Assembly (NCBI GenBank): GCA_964538235.1
Contig: CAZIFJ010000004.1
Coordinates: 1 to 39,834 of the forward strand
Length of the DNA stretch: 39,834 bases
Reading direction: 5' to 3'
DNA from: Candidatus Woesearchaeota archaeon
GTDB lineage: Archaea; Nanobdellota; Nanobdellia; Pacearchaeales; GW2011-AR1
In this document: in pieces, positions 2,982 through 37,236 of the stretch
Layout of the letters: the number at the start of each line of letters is the position of its first letter
Position numbering within the stretch: position 1 is the stretch's first letter
Translations under genes and position numbers: made by a program
The notes under the pieces: generated by a model
The model's database searches: none
What the model saw: only the letters and a program-made list of their open reading frames with translations
What the model was told of the DNA's origin: nothing

Positions 2982-3053
2982 TAGGCCTACGAGGAATTGA
3001 ACCTCGATTTTCCGGTCCGAAGCCGGAGAGTCTATCCATTAACTTATAGGCCC
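2982..3053 (-). tRNA. tRNA-Arg (anticodon TCG), no intron, CCA not encoded
   Basis: Minus strand reads GGGCCTA...AGTTAATGGATAGA...TCCGG-CTTCGGA-CCGGA...CGAGG-TTCAATT-CCTCG-TAGGCCT-A, a complete cloverleaf. Confidence 0.95.
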
Positions 3054-5571: not shown

Positions 5572-8500
5572 TTATCTTTTCTTAAGCCACTTACTCAAAA
5601 ATCCTTGGGTATATTCATGATCTGCAACGACATGTCCAGTAGGAGCGCTATACGTTTCTCCACCTGAAGGAGCACTATACGTTTCTCCACCTGAAGGAGC
5701 GCTATACGTTTCTCCACCTGAAGGAGCGCTATATGTTCCACTACTTGTACTACTTGTAGTAGTACCACTAGATGTTGTTGTTCCACCTGAATATGTCCCA
5801 GTAGTACTCCCGCTATATGTTCCAGAAGAATGAGTAGTTGTTGATCCAGAATAAGTTGTACTTCCACTATATGTTGTAGTTCCTCCAGTTGATGTTGTAG
5901 TTCCTCCACTATAAGAACCTCCAGAATAATCCCCACTACTTGAATATGTTCCTGTTGAAGAAGTTGTACCTGTTTGAGTTCCTCCACCCTGATTACTCCA
6001 TGTCCCATCACTACCTTGTGTCCAAGTATTTCCAAAATTATCCTGCACACTACCTGAATGTGTAGGAGAAGTACTTGTTGGTGGTACATAAACATAACCT
6101 CCCTCCTTCGCTTCAACTAATGCCCCACCAGAATAAGAGTAAGAATAAGACTGTTCCTTCCCACTAGCATCCTTGTAATGATACATCCCATAATCAGAAG
6201 TGGATGTTCCAGTACTTCCTGTTCCTGTTGAGCCAGTTTCTCCAGCACCACCACTATAAGTACTTGTCTTTGGATCCCAAGATTCTCCAGTTGTCGTCTT
6301 CCATGTCCCATCACTACCTTGTGTCCAAGTATTTCCACTTGCATCAGTAACACCACCACTTGCTGTTGCTCCAGTTCCTTCATGAGAAATTATTTCTCCA
6401 TTATCATTAATATATCCTCTTGAAGCATCATATCTATAATAATGATGAACAGGTGGTGTATAACTCTCTCCCTTTGAAGAAGCCCACTTACCTCCTTCAA
6501 AACTCCACGTTACTCCATCAGCAGTTGAATATGATTTCTGCTCCTCATGCCCAACAGGTGCTCCAATTGCAGTTCCTTGATAACTCCTCCCATCATTCGA
6601 GTTCCATTTCCCATCACCTTTGTAATTCCACTGCTCGCCGCCATAAGAATAAACATATTCTTTCGTTCTACTATCATAAGCAATATTGTTCTCATGAACA
6701 GAAACGTCAGGAGTATAAACTTTTCCAGAAACAGGATCAACATAATTATTATATTGTGGATTATAATCATATTGCGTCACAACCCCACTATCTGACTTCA
6801 TAGTAAATCCAGTAGGTTTATTTTGAATTTCTCCTCCACCAACAATATCATGATCCCCAGTAGGATAAGCAACTTTCTCAACAACGGTTCCGTCTTTAAC
6901 TACTTCATATCCAGTTGCAGAATATTTATAAGTCACAGTTCCTTCAGCAGTTTTCACCTCAGTAGTATATTGCTCATCTCCAGTTTTGTAAACAGGAGAT
7001 GGATCAAAACCCTCTGGATAATTCACTTCATACTTAATACCAAGATCAGTAGTATAACTATAACCTTTGTCATTAAATTTACATTTATATCCAGTCGCAG
7101 GATCTTTATATTCCTGATTTACAATAAAAGCCCCATTAAACTCAATTTTAGTTTCTTCACCTTCTACCGTCGTCTTCCGTTCAAAGAAATCAGGAGGAAT
7201 TTCCCCAATAGGAATCACTTCAACTTCTACTTCACCCTCTATTTTTTCTCCATCTTTTTTATGTTCATAATTCACAAATCCAGGAGGAACATACATTTCT
7301 CCACCATAAGCTTCAGCATAAGCGTCAGCAAACTTCTGTGATAAAATAGAAGTTGCTTCTTCAGCGCTCTTCCCTTCTGCTTGCAACTCAGCAAACTTTT
7401 TATCATAAACCTCACTCAATTTAGCTGAAAGCTCAGCAATTTTCTGTGCCTGTTCTTCTCGTGCTTTAAAGTATTCTACTTTTTCAGGATATTTTGCAAT
7501 AATCTCATCTTTAAATTGTATCCACTGCTCACTTGAAAAATGTTCATTTTTTTCAGCAAGTTCTTGTTGAATTTCTTCAGGTGTTTCCAAAAATTCCTCT
7601 AACTCACTAAAAGCACCTTTATCTCCATCATTAAATTGCTCAACAGCTCGCTCACTATTACTAATCAAATGCTCTGCAGCAGTCAATTGCCCAAAAGCCT
7701 CGCCACTATCACCATCCTCTTTTGCTTCTGTCGCTTGAGCAACTTTTAATTCAGCCTGCTCAACTAAAGTCTCCAACTGCCGTGCATCACTCTCAGCCCC
7801 AGCCTCACGTAAATCAGCAACCTCTACTCTCAAAGCAAGTAACTCTTCTTGAACAACATCAATTTTTTCACTAGAAGTCTCAGCCGCAAATGTTGTTGTT
7901 AACCCTGCATCTTCTTGAACACTCTCAACAATCAACTCAGCTTCTGCACCAGCAATATCACTATTCGTCGCAACAACATCAACAATTTCTTCTGTTTTTT
8001 CCTCAGTCGCAACAGAAAGTTCACTAGTCCCAGCATCTACAGTATGCATAAATTCAGAAATTTGTTCCTGAGTAACTTCTCCAGAAGCAGCTTTCTCTTG
8101 CAAAAGATCCTCAAAATTTTCAGAAAATTCCTGTAATTGAATACTATGATCACTCAACTGCACAACCTCAAGCAACTCAGAATCCTGCGGAGCAACATCC
8201 CCCTGAGGCTGTATTCCAGTCGCATCAACCTCACTCACATCAATCGTCGCAGTTTGCTCTGCCGCACTACTTAATCTTTCCTCAACATCACTCGCAAGTA
8301 CAAGTGCTCCTTCAATATCACCAGCTTCAAGCAAAACCTCAGCTTCAGCCATTCGCTCTGCCGCAATTTCAATATCAAATTCTGCTTGTGCATGCTCATC
8401 AAAAATAAAAGCATCCTGAACTCCTTCAGCAAAATGATCAAAAAAAGATAAAAACCCATTTTCAGGAGTAGTACCAGCATCAAACTCAAGTGTAAATTCT

Positions 8501-8640
8501 ACATCATTTTCCGTCTCTGTTCCAGAAACAACATCATGCGAATCAGCACTAGCAATAGAAAAAAAACTAAACATTAAAATAAAAATAGAAAAATATGTAA
8601 AAATTTTCTGAAGCGAATCTATTCCTCTCTTTTGTTTCAT
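5572..8640 (-). CDS. Large secreted/surface protein (1022 aa): signal peptide, acidic helical DUF5667-like region, beta-rich repeats, Ser/Thr/Gly tail
   Basis: Hydrophobic signal ending ASA, FFDHFAEGVQDAFIFD..IAAERMAEAE segment, duplicated GNTWTQGSDGTW, (TYSAPSGGE)x3, and C-terminal TGHVV...GFLSKWLKKR. Confidence 0.85.
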   Translation of the reverse strand: MKQKRGIDSLQKIFTYFSIFILMFSFFSIASADSHDVVSGTETENDVEFTLEFDAGTTPENGFLSFFDHFAEGVQDAFIFDEHAQAEFDIEIAAERMAEAEVLLEAGDIEGALVLASDVEERLSSAAEQTATIDVSEVDATGIQPQGDVAPQDSELLEVVQLSDHSIQLQEFSENFEDLLQEKAASGEVTQEQISEFMHTVDAGTSELSVATEEKTEEIVDVVATNSDIAGAEAELIVESVQEDAGLTTTFAAETSSEKIDVVQEELLALRVEVADLREAGAESDARQLETLVEQAELKVAQATEAKEDGDSGEAFGQLTAAEHLISNSERAVEQFNDGDKGAFSELEEFLETPEEIQQELAEKNEHFSSEQWIQFKDEIIAKYPEKVEYFKAREEQAQKIAELSAKLSEVYDKKFAELQAEGKSAEEATSILSQKFADAYAEAYGGEMYVPPGFVNYEHKKDGEKIEGEVEVEVIPIGEIPPDFFERKTTVEGEETKIEFNGAFIVNQEYKDPATGYKCKFNDKGYSYTTDLGIKYEVNYPEGFDPSPVYKTGDEQYTTEVKTAEGTVTYKYSATGYEVVKDGTVVEKVAYPTGDHDIVGGGEIQNKPTGFTMKSDSGVVTQYDYNPQYNNYVDPVSGKVYTPDVSVHENNIAYDSRTKEYVYSYGGEQWNYKGDGKWNSNDGRSYQGTAIGAPVGHEEQKSYSTADGVTWSFEGGKWASSKGESYTPPVHHYYRYDASRGYINDNGEIISHEGTGATASGGVTDASGNTWTQGSDGTWKTTTGESWDPKTSTYSGGAGETGSTGTGSTGTSTSDYGMYHYKDASGKEQSYSYSYSGGALVEAKEGGYVYVPPTSTSPTHSGSVQDNFGNTWTQGSDGTWSNQGGGTQTGTTSSTGTYSSSGDYSGGSYSGGTTTSTGGTTTYSGSTTYSGSTTTHSSGTYSGSTTGTYSGGTTTSSGTTTSSTSSGTYSAPSGGETYSAPSGGETYSAPSGGETYSAPTGHVVADHEYTQGFLSKWLKKR
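5641..5733. repeat. Coding 27-bp tandem repeat, ~3.4 copies (TYSAPSGGE)
   Basis: AGGAGCGCTATACGTTTCTCCACCTGA at 5641, 5668 (1 mismatch) and 5695, with a partial copy at 5722; no spacers. Confidence 0.95.
5998..6337. repeat. Identical 37-bp dispersed repeat within the surface-protein gene (5998-6034 and 6301-6337)
   Basis: CCATGTCCCATCACTACCTTGTGTCCAAGTATTTCCA occurs twice and encodes GNTWTQGSDGTW. Confidence 0.9.
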
Positions 8641-11731: not shown

Positions 11732-11745
11732 TTCAAACAAAAGAA

Positions 11746-11754
11746 TTTATTAAT
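11746..11754 (+). promoter_or_regulatory. TATA box (TTTATTAAT) separated from its start codon (11945) by an inserted element
   Basis: Removing 11768-11937 puts the box exactly 29 nt before the ATG, the spacing seen at other genes in this window. Confidence 0.6.
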
Positions 11755-11767
11755 GTTACTTTCCAAA

Positions 11768-11937
11768 TGTCAAGAACCAGCCACTAAAGTGACTGGCGTG
11801 TTTGGTTCTTGATCACCTCAAAAATTTTTAATTTTTGATGGCACAAAAATATATTGTATTTTTGTTGTGCTCAAGAATTCTGTTTGCTTACTCACGAACT
11901 AAAGTAGGGAGTTTACGCAAAAAATAATTCTTTAACA
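11768..11937 (-). mobile_element. 170-bp modular palindromic element (family A), copy 1
   Basis: Reverse complement of the 36861-36975 element (13 substitutions and 3 indels over ~118 aligned nt, by eye) with 52 extra nt (two hairpins, 11816-11867) between the modules. Ends are TGTCAAGAA and TTCTTTAACA. Confidence 0.85.
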
Positions 11938-11944
11938 TATTAAA

Positions 11945-12266
11945 ATGAATAAGTCAAAGTCAATAAAAAGAAAATTCATAGCAACAATATTTTTCTCAAT
12001 ATATTAAACCAACTTATTCTTTCGGTTTTTTCTGTTGGTTTACTATACTCGCTTCAATCGGTGGAACAATTCACGGAATATTCTTTGATGTAGATTTTTC
12101 TCAAATAAAAAGACTAACAATTGAAGGTTTTATCTTAACATTCATTATTTTATTTCCTCCTTACTTTTACTCGAATGGATTTTTGATTTAGAAATATAAA
12201 GAAGGATTCAAAATTCTTGAGCAAAGAACTCAAATCCTTGAAAAGAAACTAAAGATTAATAAATAA
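11945..12266 (+). pseudogene. Degraded small membrane-protein gene
   Basis: MNKSKSIKRKFIATIFFSI|LASIGGTIHGIFFDVDFSQIKRLTIEGFILTFIILFP is restored by removing 46 bp (12002-12047). Further frameshifts lie near 12158 and 12193 (LLLLEWIFDLE / KEGFKILEQR...). Confidence 0.65.
12001..12047. mobile_element. ~46-bp hairpin element (family B), copy 1
   Basis: ATATTAAACCAAC-ttattctttcggttttttct-GTTGGTTTACTAT, closely similar to 13139-13185; ATA is repeated at both junctions. Confidence 0.75.
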
Positions 12267-12979: not shown

Positions 12980-14224
12980 TCACTTTCTTCTAAATCTTCT
13001 CTCAATATAATCAATCAAAGATTTTCCTTCTAATCTCGTTGAAGAAGGTCCATTTCTAACATAAAACTCCTCGCCTTTATCTGTTTTCAAAAAAACTTCA
13101 CTATTACTTTTAGAACAATAAATTCTCAAAATCTTTTTATAGTTAACCAACTTATTTTTTCGGTTAGTTTCTGTTGATTTACTATCAAGCGGAGCAATTA
13201 AATCAGCCGAAGAATTTAATTGGTCTGCTATATCTTTAATTTTAACAAAAGCAAAATGCAAATAAGGAAGAAAATCAGCCCCAATATGTGTTTTAATCAA
13301 ATTAGTAAAATGAAGTTGCATTTTATCATCGCTCACAAAACCATCTTTCTCAATTCCTAAAATCTCTCCTCTATCAGAAACTCCTATTAATAAAGTTCCT
13401 CCCTCAGAATTTAAATAAGCAGTTAATGTTTTCAATGAAGCATATTCTAAATTTTTGTCAAACTCTCCTGTATGCAAATTCTTTCTTAAAGTTGCCTTAA
13501 ACTCAACATCATATTTCTCTCCCGAGTTTACTAGTTTCAAAATATCTTCTCCAATATTGTGTTTTCCCGACTTAAATATAAGAGGATATTTTTTCATTAT
13601 TTTCAAAATAAAACCGCTTAACGTTGATTGATCGTTTCTCAAAACATAAAAATATCCAAAAACAGAAACAATTAACGCTCCAAAAAAATTTGCAACTAAA
13701 TCAAACATCGTCTCTCTCAAATCAATCTGCAAATTAAATCCTAAAAAGCTATCCAAAAAAAATTCAAACAACTCCCAAACACTTCCTAAAGCAAATGAAA
13801 AACAAAAAGAAAAAAAAGAAATAATTAGCGGGCTCGCGTCCAATAAATCCTCTTTATATAAAAAAGAAAGTATTGTCAATCCAATAAACCCTAAAATAAT
13901 AGATGCTCCTAAATTCAACATTAATCCCCACCACCAAAATTCAGAATACAATCCTCTTATATCTCCCAAAAATAAAGTTCCATATAAAAATAAAACCACA
14001 AAAAGCTCAACATCGTAAAAAAACTTAAAGTTGAAAATCCTTTCAAAAAGAAAAGGCAAAAAAGTAATTAAAAAACTAATTCCAGAAACAAGTAAAACTA
14101 AATCTCTCTTTGAATAAAATGCCCCAACAAAAGCAAACAAAAGCATTACTCTAAGAAACCACAAAACAAAAATTCTAAATTTTCCCGAAGTCTTATTATT
14201 TTCACTTAAACCATTATTTCCCAT
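12980..14224 (-). CDS. Multi-TM protein fused to a C-terminal AlbA_2 (Schlafen-like) domain, with a 31-aa in-frame hairpin insert
   Basis: About six TM helices with VWELFEF..TMFDLVAN, then GEKYDVEFKATL, KTLTAYLNSEGGTLLIGVSDRGEILGIE and FYVRNGPSST. Confidence 0.85.
   Translation of the reverse strand: MGNNGLSENNKTSGKFRIFVLWFLRVMLLFAFVGAFYSKRDLVLLVSGISFLITFLPFLFERIFNFKFFYDVELFVVLFLYGTLFLGDIRGLYSEFWWWGLMLNLGASIILGFIGLTILSFLYKEDLLDASPLIISFFSFCFSFALGSVWELFEFFLDSFLGFNLQIDLRETMFDLVANFFGALIVSVFGYFYVLRNDQSTLSGFILKIMKKYPLIFKSGKHNIGEDILKLVNSGEKYDVEFKATLRKNLHTGEFDKNLEYASLKTLTAYLNSEGGTLLIGVSDRGEILGIEKDGFVSDDKMQLHFTNLIKTHIGADFLPYLHFAFVKIKDIADQLNSSADLIAPLDSKSTETNRKNKLVNYKKILRIYCSKSNSEVFLKTDKGEEFYVRNGPSSTRLEGKSLIDYIERRFRRK
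13141..13233. mobile_element. 93-bp in-frame composite insert: family-B hairpin plus a second hairpin
   Basis: ATAGTTAACCAAC..GTTGATTTACTAT (13139-13185) plus AGCGGAGCAATTAAAT..ATTTAATTGGTCTGCT (13188-13229). TAT is repeated at the junctions; removal gives KIKDKKILRIYC. Confidence 0.75.
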
Positions 14225-31551: not shown

Positions 31552-32126
31552 GTGAAAAAAACACTAATTCAATTCATAAAATTTGCAACTATTGGGACTA
31601 TTGGTACAATAATCCATTTTATAATTCTCTTTACTTTAACAGAATTCCTTGAAATCAACAACCCAACCGCAGCAAGCTGCGGGGTATGACTAACTGAAAT
31701 CCGACAAACGTAACTGACCCTTTGCACCTCCTTGCTCCTCGACGTATTTTTTTATTTTTTCAACCGCTATAATTGCTTAAAAAAAATTCTTTAGGTTATT
31801 GCTTTGCCCAGCCGCAGCAAGCTGCGGGGTAAAACTATTTAATTTATTATATAATTTCTTCTGCAATAGCCTTCCTAGTAGCAATGACAAACAATTTCAT
31901 ACTTAATAAAATATGGACTTTTAACGAAAGTCTAAAAGAAAAAGCACATTCAAAATACGCAAAATTTTTTATTATTAGCTCAACAGCTATGGCGATAAAC
32001 TTATCATTACTATATATAATAACAGAATTCTTTGGTGTTTATTATCTAATCTCTCAAATAATTGCTATTTTTTTCTCTCTATGGCTAAATTTCTTCGGAA
32101 ATAAATTCTGGACTTTTAGGAACTAG
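31552..32126 (+). pseudogene. GtrA-family membrane protein interrupted by a 188-bp insertion
   Basis: GTG start MKKTLIQFIKFATIGTIG..LTEFLEI | YYIISSAIAFLVAMTNNFILNKIWTF. Removing the insert gives 128 aa with two GtrA half-repeats (cf. TEFFGVYYLIS..NKFWTF). Confidence 0.9.
31657..31844 (-). mobile_element. Internally deleted IS200/IS605-type element (tnpA remnant)
   Basis: Two direct copies of the hairpin CCGCAGC-AA-GCTGCGGGGTA (31667 and 31812). Between them the minus strand encodes AVEKIKKYVEEQGGAKGQLRLSDFS* (31767-31690), the TnpA Y..Q helix. Boundaries can slide a few nt. Confidence 0.85.
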
Positions 32127-36546: not shown

Positions 36547-36777
36547 ATGATTACAACAATTCAATTAAATGAAGATATAAAAAAAGCATTAGATAGATTA
36601 AAATCTAACAAAGAAACTTACGAAGAAGTTATTCTAGGTCTAATGAAAATTGCAGACAAATATAGCAGAGAACAAGAAAGTTTGCTTATAGAGGGTTGCA
36701 AAACAATGGCTCAAGAAAATATAAAAATAACTAAAGAATTTGAATCAATTGAAGATTTAAATAGATGGAAATGGTAG
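36547..36777 (+). CDS. Antitoxin (RHH-like N-terminus) of a MazF/PemK module
   Basis: [26 protein letters not shown] and [12 protein letters not shown] (NdoAI-like C-terminus); overlaps the toxin start. Confidence 0.8.
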
Positions 36778-37233
36778 AAATAAAAAGAGGAGATATTTTC
36801 TTAGCAAATCTTGAACCAACAAAGGGAAAAGAACAAGGAGGAATTCGACCAGTTCTAATATGTCAAGAATTATTTTTTGCGTAACTCCCTACTTTAGTTT
36901 GTGACGAAGCAAAAATAATTCTTGAGCATGCTCAAGAACCAACACATCAGCCACCTTAGTAGCTAGTTCTTGACAATCCAAAATGATATTTCAAACAAAC
37001 ATTCTCCTGTTACAATAATTGCTGCAATTACTTCAAAAATTTATGAAAAAGAGTTTCCAACAAATGTTTTCATTTCCAAAACAATCTCTAATCTAAACAA
37101 AGACTCGACAATAATGTTAAATCAAATAAGAACAATTGACAATTCAAGATTAATAAAAAAAGTTGGATCTCTTAATCAATATTTAATAAGTAGTGTTGAT
37201 AAAGCAATAAAGATAAGTCTTGGACTTTCATAA
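36771..37233 (+). pseudogene. mazF: MazF/PemK endoribonuclease toxin interrupted by a 115-bp element
   Basis: [30 protein letters not shown] | IQNDISNKHSPVTIIAAITSK..QIRTID..AIKISLGL. Exact removal of 36861-36975 gives 115 aa; read-through stops at 36882-36884. Confidence 0.93.
36861..36975 (+). mobile_element. 115-bp modular palindromic element (family A), copy 2
   Basis: 9-bp terminal IR TGTCAAGAA/TTCTTGACA. Module A (36861-36928) and module B (36929-36975) are each self-complementary; no target duplication. Confidence 0.9.
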
Positions 37234-37236
37234 AAA

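Follow-up and report, generated by a model that had tools for sequence, protein, structure and literature searches.

A hairpin mini-element between a promoter and its start codon in a Woesearchaeota archaeon, and the origin of its two additional hairpins

The stretch of DNA analyzed here (referred to as the window) is the entire contig CAZIFJ010000004.1 of Candidatus Woesearchaeota archaeon (assembly GCA_964538235.1; 39,834 nucleotides). It contains two copies of a hairpin-rich mini-element, one within a mazF toxin gene and the other (copy 2) between a TATA box and the ATG codon at 11945. Copy 2 carries two additional hairpins between its modules, and the locus raises the question of where these came from and what the insertion did to the gene behind it. 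The answer to the first part is that the two hairpins are an inherited optional module, a case which is well documented yet fairly ordinary. The source assembly (G000) comprises 618,678 bases in 27 contigs (approx. 29% G+C, 84% complete). Its contigs are given C-numbers (the window is C4), whereas G-numbers denote relative genomes and L-numbers extracted loci.

Structure of the family and distribution of the two-hairpin module

Copy 2 (positions 11768-11937, plus strand) has a length of 170 nucleotides (nt) and is composed of module B (11768-11815; 48 nt), the hairpins H1 (11816-11841) and H2 (11842-11867), of 26 nt each, and module A (11868-11937; 70 nt), all on the plus strand. DNA folding revealed that H1 and H2 are each a perfect 9-bp hairpin; together they form an optional cassette. 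The mazF copy (36861-36975, minus strand; 115 nt) consists of B and A alone, and its B runs directly into A (...GAGCA|TGCTC...) across the palindrome TTCTTGAGCA|TGCTCAAGAA. Direct reading of the two copies upheld the boundaries proposed for copy 2 in an earlier note on this DNA, as well as its statement that the 52 nt of the two extra hairpins lie exactly between B and A. The copies are not otherwise the same; their B modules are only approx. 77% alike. A repeat search aligned their A arms (11868-11913 and 36883-36928) over 46 nt with 89% complementarity. Module A of copy 2 is a mosaic, with a left arm of the C10/C7 type and a right arm of the standard type; in blastn, positions 107-154 of the copy are closest to C10, and positions 124-165 are 100% identical to C23, C6 and C21.

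When read on the strand on which the loops appear as C-TTTA-G (the top strand, which is the minus strand for copy 2), the elements follow the plan TTNATA | A-end ... B-end. The left end is module A reversed, i.e. the terminus, 25 nt and an imperfect C-TTTA-G hairpin, which in copy 2 is enclosed in a long stem and has the same loop as B. The right end is module B reversed, i.e. an 8-bp C-TTTA-G hairpin and a 9-nt tail ending TGACA, and an optional core may lie between the two ends. The distance from terminus to hairpin is thus 25 nt on the target side and 9 nt on the other side. The two termini form perfect 9-nt terminal inverted repeats (TGTCAAGAA ... TTCTTGACA). In copy 2 the right terminus of module A, as read on the plus strand, is mutated, reading TTCTTTAACA in place of the TTCTTGACA found in 8 of the 10 complete copies of the source genome. 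Minimal forms have 74 nt (L067) and 83 nt (C20:531).

The hairpins were shown to be under structural constraint. Among 42 distinct B modules, two-sided changes occur in six of the eight pairs of the inner helix (57 cells), a value reached in none of 500 shuffles, and slid controls scored far lower. The loop of four bases, TAAA in the printed orientation and TTTA on the opposite strand, is conserved, but the pair that closes it varies between C-G, A-T and G-C. The invariance of the outer stem of B was imposed by the search pattern itself.

Blastn searches with both window copies located approx. 20 loci in the source genome, with approx. 18 two-module copies in 0.62 Mb. The search expression for module B, on which the census is based, defined 15 distinct copies, and three further copies have a diverged B (C15:~500-577, C1:~100162-100236 and C20:531-613). 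Many copies are placed at or near contig ends, as repeats are. Among 40 relatives searched with the 170-nt query, only G024 (same family, another genus) yielded clear copies (30 matches, best E 1.6e-17). AT-rich matches of 18-59 nt in 11 other relatives (E 1e-4 to 0.01) were not accepted as copies, except for a B-like module in G017 (L004). An exact-pattern scan of species genomes for B detected 72 stretches in 17 named assemblies bearing the labels Nanoarchaeota, Pacearchaeota, Woesearchaeota or Nanoarchaeia, which may overlap the genomes behind some of the G labels, as the two sets were not matched up. A looser right-end pattern returned at least 120 further stretches, most of them from unrelated bacteria, and at least 8 of these are additional copies of the Nanoarchaeota type.

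One of the named assemblies (L037-L107, e.g. L054, L097 and L104) harbors a B...A' unit that is itself enclosed by an outer hairpin, the termini of which follow the same style (TGTCGGAAAT... / TGTCAGAAAT...). These composites abut TCTTAA, and as three-layer elements they have been amplified to more than 25 copies, many of them at contig ends.

The distribution of the cassette provided the answer to the question of its origin. The order B-H1-H2-A is common to five copies of the source genome (C4:11768, C22, C23, C14, which is cut by a contig end, and C3), five being also its frequency among the 15 expression-defined B copies. H2 is identical in copy 2, C22 and C23, and the H1 loop reads TTT in copy 2 and AAA in C22 and C14; Logan contigs likewise show AAA at 11827-11829. 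The C3 copy has its entire middle inverted, and the GATCA and GAGCA variants of the junction have changed sides, as is expected of an inversion between inverted CAAGAA boxes. A diverged yet recognizably homologous pair (H1'-H2') occupies the same junction, with the same GATCA variant, in L090, which also has a second pair (H3/H4) inside A, as in C22 and C23. Since the cassette is common to other copies and L090, copy 2 inherited it when it transposed, and the claim that this copy itself had gained H1-H2 did not hold. Copy 2 acquired no cassette locally, and the presence or absence of H1-H2 as such may reflect either gain or loss.

The junction between B and A is nevertheless a place at which pairs of hairpins recur. 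Among 88 distinct copies counted for the state of this junction, 26 (from 11 assemblies) are direct and 17, as defined by the expression, contain a cassette (four assemblies); C23, C14 and L094 add to the latter number, and both states were found in three of the four cassette assemblies. Other pairs of 50-62 nt occupy the junction in L080, L086, L063 and 10 copies of one assembly. An identical B core of 45 nt, present 19 times in one assembly, is joined on its right to a cassette in 9 cases, directly to A in 3 and to other partners in 7, which indicates that, within a genome, the reassortment of modules outpaces the divergence of B. To this extent the earlier view of the junction stands. In contrast, the expectation that variable cassettes would always occupy the CA|TG junction failed once the copies had been collected and decomposed: cassettes are also present (i) inside A (H3/H4), (ii) on the terminal side of the A hairpin (C21:7945, L065 and L081), (iii) in the loop of H1 (C23) and (iv) in the loop of the B hairpin (L188), and in L091 a pair resembling H1/H2 forms the core of an outer hairpin of another kind. 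A fuzzy search (up to 5 substitutions) of the source genome for H1 or H2 outside B...A found nothing except one H1-like hairpin at C1:73664.

A gain is certain in one case. C23 has the architecture of C22 plus 167 nt in the H1 loop (C23:8957-9123, L157), inserted directly after TTTAA on the top strand and without duplication. This insert contains two C-TTTA-G hairpins of the IS200 type, which are the best matches of a covariance model of IS200 right ends (21.2 and 18.4 bits; E 1.3e-4 and 1.3e-3).

The direction of change is viewed differently if the long form B-H1-H2-A (with or without H3/H4) was ancestral and short forms such as the mazF copy arose by recurrent deletion, through recombination or slippage at CAAGAA boxes. 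The full six-hairpin architecture is common to the source genome (C22, C23) and L090, the copies C6:33167 and C21:7945 look like C22 minus everything from B to H4, and repeat-mediated deletions of cores are documented for the palindrome-associated transposable elements (PATEs) in the account given in PMC3119063. However, exact direct junctions (GAGCA|TGCTC) are present in the 26 copies from 11 assemblies, there is no direct repeat flanking H1-H2 that could yield such a junction, direct forms are the commoner ones, and minimal forms exist (L067 and C20:531). We regard an ancestral long form as possible, though on balance unlikely.

A far poorer case can be made for the scenario of the earlier note, in which copy 2 gained H1/H2 after its insertion, elements grow stepwise at CA|TG, and the result is a regulatory structured leader. 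The numerous junction cassettes (the 17 expression-defined copies plus C23, C14 and L094, in four assemblies), with direct copies beside them in three of these assemblies, and the true nested insertion seen on comparing C23 with C22 are what one would expect of such growth. However, the same cassette with the same GATCA variant resides in four other copies of the source genome (one of them inverted), a homologue exists in another assembly, cassettes also occur at other positions, and the downstream gene is a pseudogene (see below). These observations make it very unlikely.

Insertion sites and the interrupted genes

The insertion of the element was shown to be precise and not accompanied by target duplication, with the same short motif abutted on one side only. 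The mazF copy is inserted after the codons CTA ATA of a mazF/pemK toxin gene (36765-37236, plus strand), which lies downstream of an antitoxin gene (36547-36777). The PemK_toxin profile matches with positions 1-26 on the N-terminal fragment (36765-36860) and with positions 27-109 on the C-terminal fragment (36976-37233, followed by the stop codon); since the profile is unbroken across the insert, the insertion amounts to exactly 115 nt, without any duplication. This supports the lack of a target duplication more strongly than the earlier note, which had already proposed it, could. In another assembly (L142), an IS200-type tnpA gene is cut by an element that follows TTTATA, and directly behind this element the conserved reading of the C-terminus (...YIENQEVHH) continues.

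The tally of the flanks started from 35 copies with a recognizable standard right end; five (L037, L105, L063, L080 and L099) were dropped as false ends, in which the expression had matched an internal motif. The 30 complete copies that were left (from the source genome and 11 named assemblies) have a common flank on the A side, with the composition T30 A28 T29 N (T17/A8/C5) A30 A28, and no consensus on the B side. In copy 2 the host DNA next to the A end reads TATTAAA (11938-11944, plus strand), which corresponds to TTNATA on the top strand. Where an element lies in mazF or tnpA, T-A-T-N-A-A belongs to the sequence of the host gene itself, and it is therefore the target and not a part of the element.

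The perfect 9-nt terminal inverted repeats, together with a right flank beginning with TA in 28 of the 30 copies and a left flank ending with TA in 9 of them, could recall a miniature inverted-repeat transposable element (MITE) moved by a DDE transposase (e.g. of the IS630/Tc1-mariner type, with duplication of TA), in which the hairpins would be incidental. However, the mazF frame and the PemK profile become continuous again only when exactly 115 nt are removed, whereas a TA duplication would leave two extra bases; a left TA is present in none of the 10 source-genome copies, the conserved 6-nt flank is one-sided, and no DDE transposase was found in the source genome. The reading as a TA target duplication was rejected on the PemK profile and the flank tally, and movement by a DDE enzyme is highly improbable. 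That the family represents genes for structured non-coding RNAs instead of mobile DNA, as stem covariation and strongly negative folding energies might suggest, is scarcely credible given two precisely interrupted protein genes, copies in both orientations, variable modules, many copies at contig ends and a window in which no Rfam family reaches its gathering score except a tRNA (2982-3053).

At the second site, copy 2 split a real promoter from a real start codon. A BRE-like A-rich stretch (BRE, transcription factor B recognition element) and a TATA box occupy 11737-11754 (plus strand), and TTTATTAAT (11746-11754) starts 29 nt before the ATG at 11945 once the 170 nt are removed. The upstream profile of 434 open reading frames (ORFs) of at least 150 codons is A-rich at -36 to -31 and reads T-T-T-W-W-A-A-A at -29 to -22 from the ATG, which is the pattern of leaderless archaeal genes. 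The position weight matrix (PWM) score of the ATG at 11945 is -1.43 in the DNA as it stands and 5.85 with 11768-11937 removed, alongside 5.6, 6.45 and 7.16 for the comparison ATGs at 2212, 14315 and 36547, respectively. A score of 5.85 ranks at percentile 98.8 among 5000 random ATGs and at percentile 82.5 among real starts, with the best values at offsets 0 and -1. The spacing between promoter and ATG had been put forward earlier as an argument for the insertion, and the PWM values strengthen it.

The reading frame that begins at this ATG ends after just 20 codons. In the next frame a stretch of 60 residues can be read at 12009-12188, and homologues of it were detected in 12 of 120 further genomes of this family (E 1e-8 to 2e-16); seven extracted homologues are 84-92 amino acids long, and in four of them a T-rich octamer starts at -29. 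Tblastn with these homologues placed residues 1-19 at 11945-12001, followed by an insert of 46 nt; beyond it, the central part of the protein continues in frame +1, the segment LLLLEWIFDLE returns to frame 0, and the tail is once more in frame +1, with an intervening stop. The insert is a hairpin mini-element (12002-12047, plus strand) with blastn matches at C4:13145-13185 and C1:73593-73629, and it causes the first frameshift. The insert, the frameshifts and the stop thus identify 11945-12266 (plus strand; pieces in frames 0, +1, 0 and +1) as a pseudogene of a small conserved membrane protein that has 84-92 residues in relatives.

With a pseudogene downstream, silencing fits better than a modulation of expression, and the outcome looks like gene loss and not like a regulated leader. 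Copy 2 landed 7 nt upstream of the ATG of a leaderless gene and shifted its BRE and TATA box 170 nt away; the gene decayed afterwards or was already decaying. Judged from spacing alone, transcription from the old TATA box would start 7-8 nt inside B and then meet the T5 tracts in H1 and H2.

The 46-nt insert belongs to a second family, i.e. single-hairpin mini-elements of 40-46 nt with arms ...AAACCAAC / GTTGGTTT... and a variable loop. Its sites are 12002-12047 and 13145-13185 of the window, C1:73593-73629, C6:22927-22974, C6:3891-3935 and C17:12350-12395. The second of the window sites lies in a segment (13100-13230) where such a hairpin and an adjacent repeat of the GCGGAGCAAT...TTGGTCTGCT type are inserted in frame within a 414-aa ORF (12980-14224, minus strand). 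The Schlafen AlbA_2 domain of this ORF extends over 163 residues for 117 profile positions, an in-frame insertion of the kind known from Rickettsia palindromic elements (RPE-like). Repeats of the GCGGAGCAAT...TTGGTCTGCT type were also found at C1:~73690 and C18:~4547.

Probable relation to IS200-type insertion sequences

The best reading of the family, and on balance a probable one, is that of an IS200/IS605-type element mobilized in trans. Y1_Tnp genes are present in 46 of 201 genomes of the order and in four of the five element-bearing assemblies tested. Just downstream of the gene, 17 of 38 tnpA loci have an uninterrupted hairpin of at least 6 bp with a TTTA loop, and in 10 of these the stem leads into a 9-nt tail, AGGA(T/C)GT(C/T)A, beyond which the copies diverge. 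Module B, when reversed, shares its plan with these 10 right ends (8 bp, C-TTTA-G and a 9-nt tail ending CA), and the same end hairpins with 8-bp stems and the same kind of right tail characterize the IS200-type elements of the order that contain Y1_Tnp only (e.g. L116, L136, L141 and L143). The 5' half of the A hairpin and its context (...AAACTCC..ACTTTAG) resemble the right ends of L108, L116 and L141.

The elements would then move as single strands by "peel-and-paste", catalyzed in trans by an IS200-type Y1 (HUH) TnpA like those common in related genomes, which would recognize the two subterminal hairpins. The B|A junction may correspond to the place that the transposase gene holds in an autonomous element and may be free of transposition constraints; self-folding hairpins placed there, or in hairpin loops, should leave the flanking recognition parts no further apart. 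Such a constraint-free junction and self-folding hairpins would explain why two-hairpin cassettes collect at B|A. On this view H1-H2 is an old optional cassette that was carried along when copy 2 inserted. The reassortment of modules within genomes would proceed through nested insertions and through inversion or recombination involving the repeated CAAGAA boxes, perhaps also through pairing between the ends of neighboring elements.

Several results weigh against mobilization by an IS200-type enzyme. The covariance model of the 10 IS200 right ends, run over 48,977 bases, gave the B hairpins just 9.2-14.5 bits (E 0.028-2; for copy 2, 11.4 bits and E 0.33 at 11777-11796), and at E values up to 10 it listed no match for the A hairpin or for the B hairpin of the mazF copy. 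The source genome (84% complete) has no match to Y1_Tnp, the TnpB zinc ribbon, OrfB_IS605, DDE_Tnp_1, rve or the IS110 family; G024 is without Y1_Tnp, and G017 has a decayed Y1_Tnp copy with 5 stops. Nine TnpA proteins from relatives, compared by tblastn with every element locus and with the whole genome, revealed no autonomous element with these termini; the matches at element loci are an interrupted tnpA (L065), a partial gene approx. 5.7 kb from a B module (L102) and a piece of 22 amino acids (L041). Among the 120 loci listed for the looser right-end pattern, none contains a tnpA. Perfect 9-nt terminal inverted repeats are absent from classical IS200/IS605 elements and from PATEs. The full IS200-type copies of the order also differ in that they encode TnpA, end with the right tail AGGATGTCA and not TTCTTGACA, lack TTNATA at the left flank and have no terminal inverted repeats. 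Finally, no empty-site form was present in the Logan contigs of the source metagenome (three DNA runs of one study), in which none of the contigs listed spans the element. A Logan joint between 11806 and 11878 on opposite strands probably reads an inverted copy of the C3 type and was not taken as independent evidence.

Some IS200 copies themselves carry additional hairpins. In full copies, right-end hairpins with two small extra hairpins 5' of the C-TTTA-G loop were observed in L121, L126, L133, L134, L135 and L145, as in the B module of L188, and the extra hairpins are missing from other copies, e.g. L136 and L143. A two-hairpin element with a TGTCAAGA-type terminus (C2:25800-25920, i.e. L164 100-220, minus strand) reached 20.5 and 18.4 bits with the right-end model; one of its stems equals the right end of L116 but for one pair, and it adjoins a B-containing element with a different type of right module. 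Two GC-rich hairpin repeats with a CCGCAGCAAGCTGCGG core (window 31662-31692 and 31807-31837) are like the hairpins flanking a different IS200-type tnpA in L118.

Comparison with known elements

The family resembles the PATEs, which PMC3119063 describes from Haloquadratum walsbyi as derivatives of IS200/IS605 elements; elements of this kind moved in trans by TnpA are mentioned in PMC10055086. As far as these descriptions extend, both groups are too short to code for proteins, produce no target duplication and have a short targeting sequence that is restricted to one end, palindromes near the termini like those of the IS200/IS605 type, heterogeneous cores and nested small elements. In PATEs, according to PMC3119063, the palindrome lies further from the terminus on the 5' side, and the same is found here. 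In contrast to PATEs, which in that description are defined without them, the present elements possess perfect 9-nt terminal inverted repeats, and we therefore do not file the family as PATEs in the strict sense. It further differs in its low-GC DPANN host, in a body made nearly entirely of hairpins with CAAGAA-type feet, and in a genome in which neither TnpA nor TnpB was found.

SMR-A of Haloquadratum, as portrayed in PMC3119063, is an element of approx. 110 bp with prominent inverted terminal repeats, no target duplication and an unknown mobilizing enzyme, nested in hairpins of the IS605 type. The 115-nt elements described here, with their 9-nt terminal inverted repeats and lack of target duplication, are similar. 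However, SMR-A targets the near-terminal palindromes of PATEs and IS605 elements, whereas the present elements target TTNATA in genes and spacers, and only their cassettes and the 167-nt insert sit in hairpin loops. This comparison is one of descriptions only, drawn from the account in PMC3119063.

A closer counterpart of SMR-A might be the cassettes. We tentatively suggest, as an idea that we ourselves consider doubtful, that the two-hairpin cassettes of 50-62 nt (H1-H2, H3-H4 and relatives) are the smallest mobile units, and that they home to single-stranded spots of other hairpin elements, namely the tip of the B|A palindrome, the 5' flank of the loops in hairpins of the TnpA type and the tips of stems. 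Hints of such mobility are that cassettes always occur as pairs, that one of them, in L188, begins with the canonical terminus TGTCAAGAAT and sits in the loop of the B hairpin, that an H1/H2-like pair makes up the core in L091, and that the same loop position is filled in several full IS200 right ends. If true, mobile cassettes would build composite "Russian-doll" transposons and could disable or tune IS200-type ends; they would be the DPANN counterpart of Haloquadratum SMR-A, among the smallest transposable units known, and would help to understand the targeting or disabling of single-strand transposons. The possible independent mobility of the cassettes is the only aspect of wider interest.

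The family as a whole is a clean and checkable example of hairpin mini-transposons that remodel very small DPANN genomes: one copy interrupts the gene of a toxin, a second has parted a leaderless gene, now a pseudogene, from its promoter, and the elements join terminal inverted repeats with IS200-type hairpins while their internal hairpin modules are reassorted.

Constant outer modules with a variable number of internal hairpin modules are also a feature of the BOX elements of Streptococcus pneumoniae and of the mosaics of repetitive extragenic palindromes (REPs) in enterobacteria, the bacterial interspersed mosaic elements (BIMEs). These are, in contrast, bacterial, unrelated in sequence and intergenic only, and the likeness is one of functional analogy alone.

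A Woesearchaea genome is among those with the highest MITE density according to PMC11602168, where it is named without a description of the present family. Searches of the literature on miniature inverted-repeat elements of DPANN archaea yielded no description of the family either, although the supplementary tables of PMC11602168 and PMC3119063 may bear on this.

A repeat of another kind was observed in the window at 5636-5770, where four to five tandem copies of a 27-nt unit lie within a 1022-aa ORF (5572-8640, minus strand).

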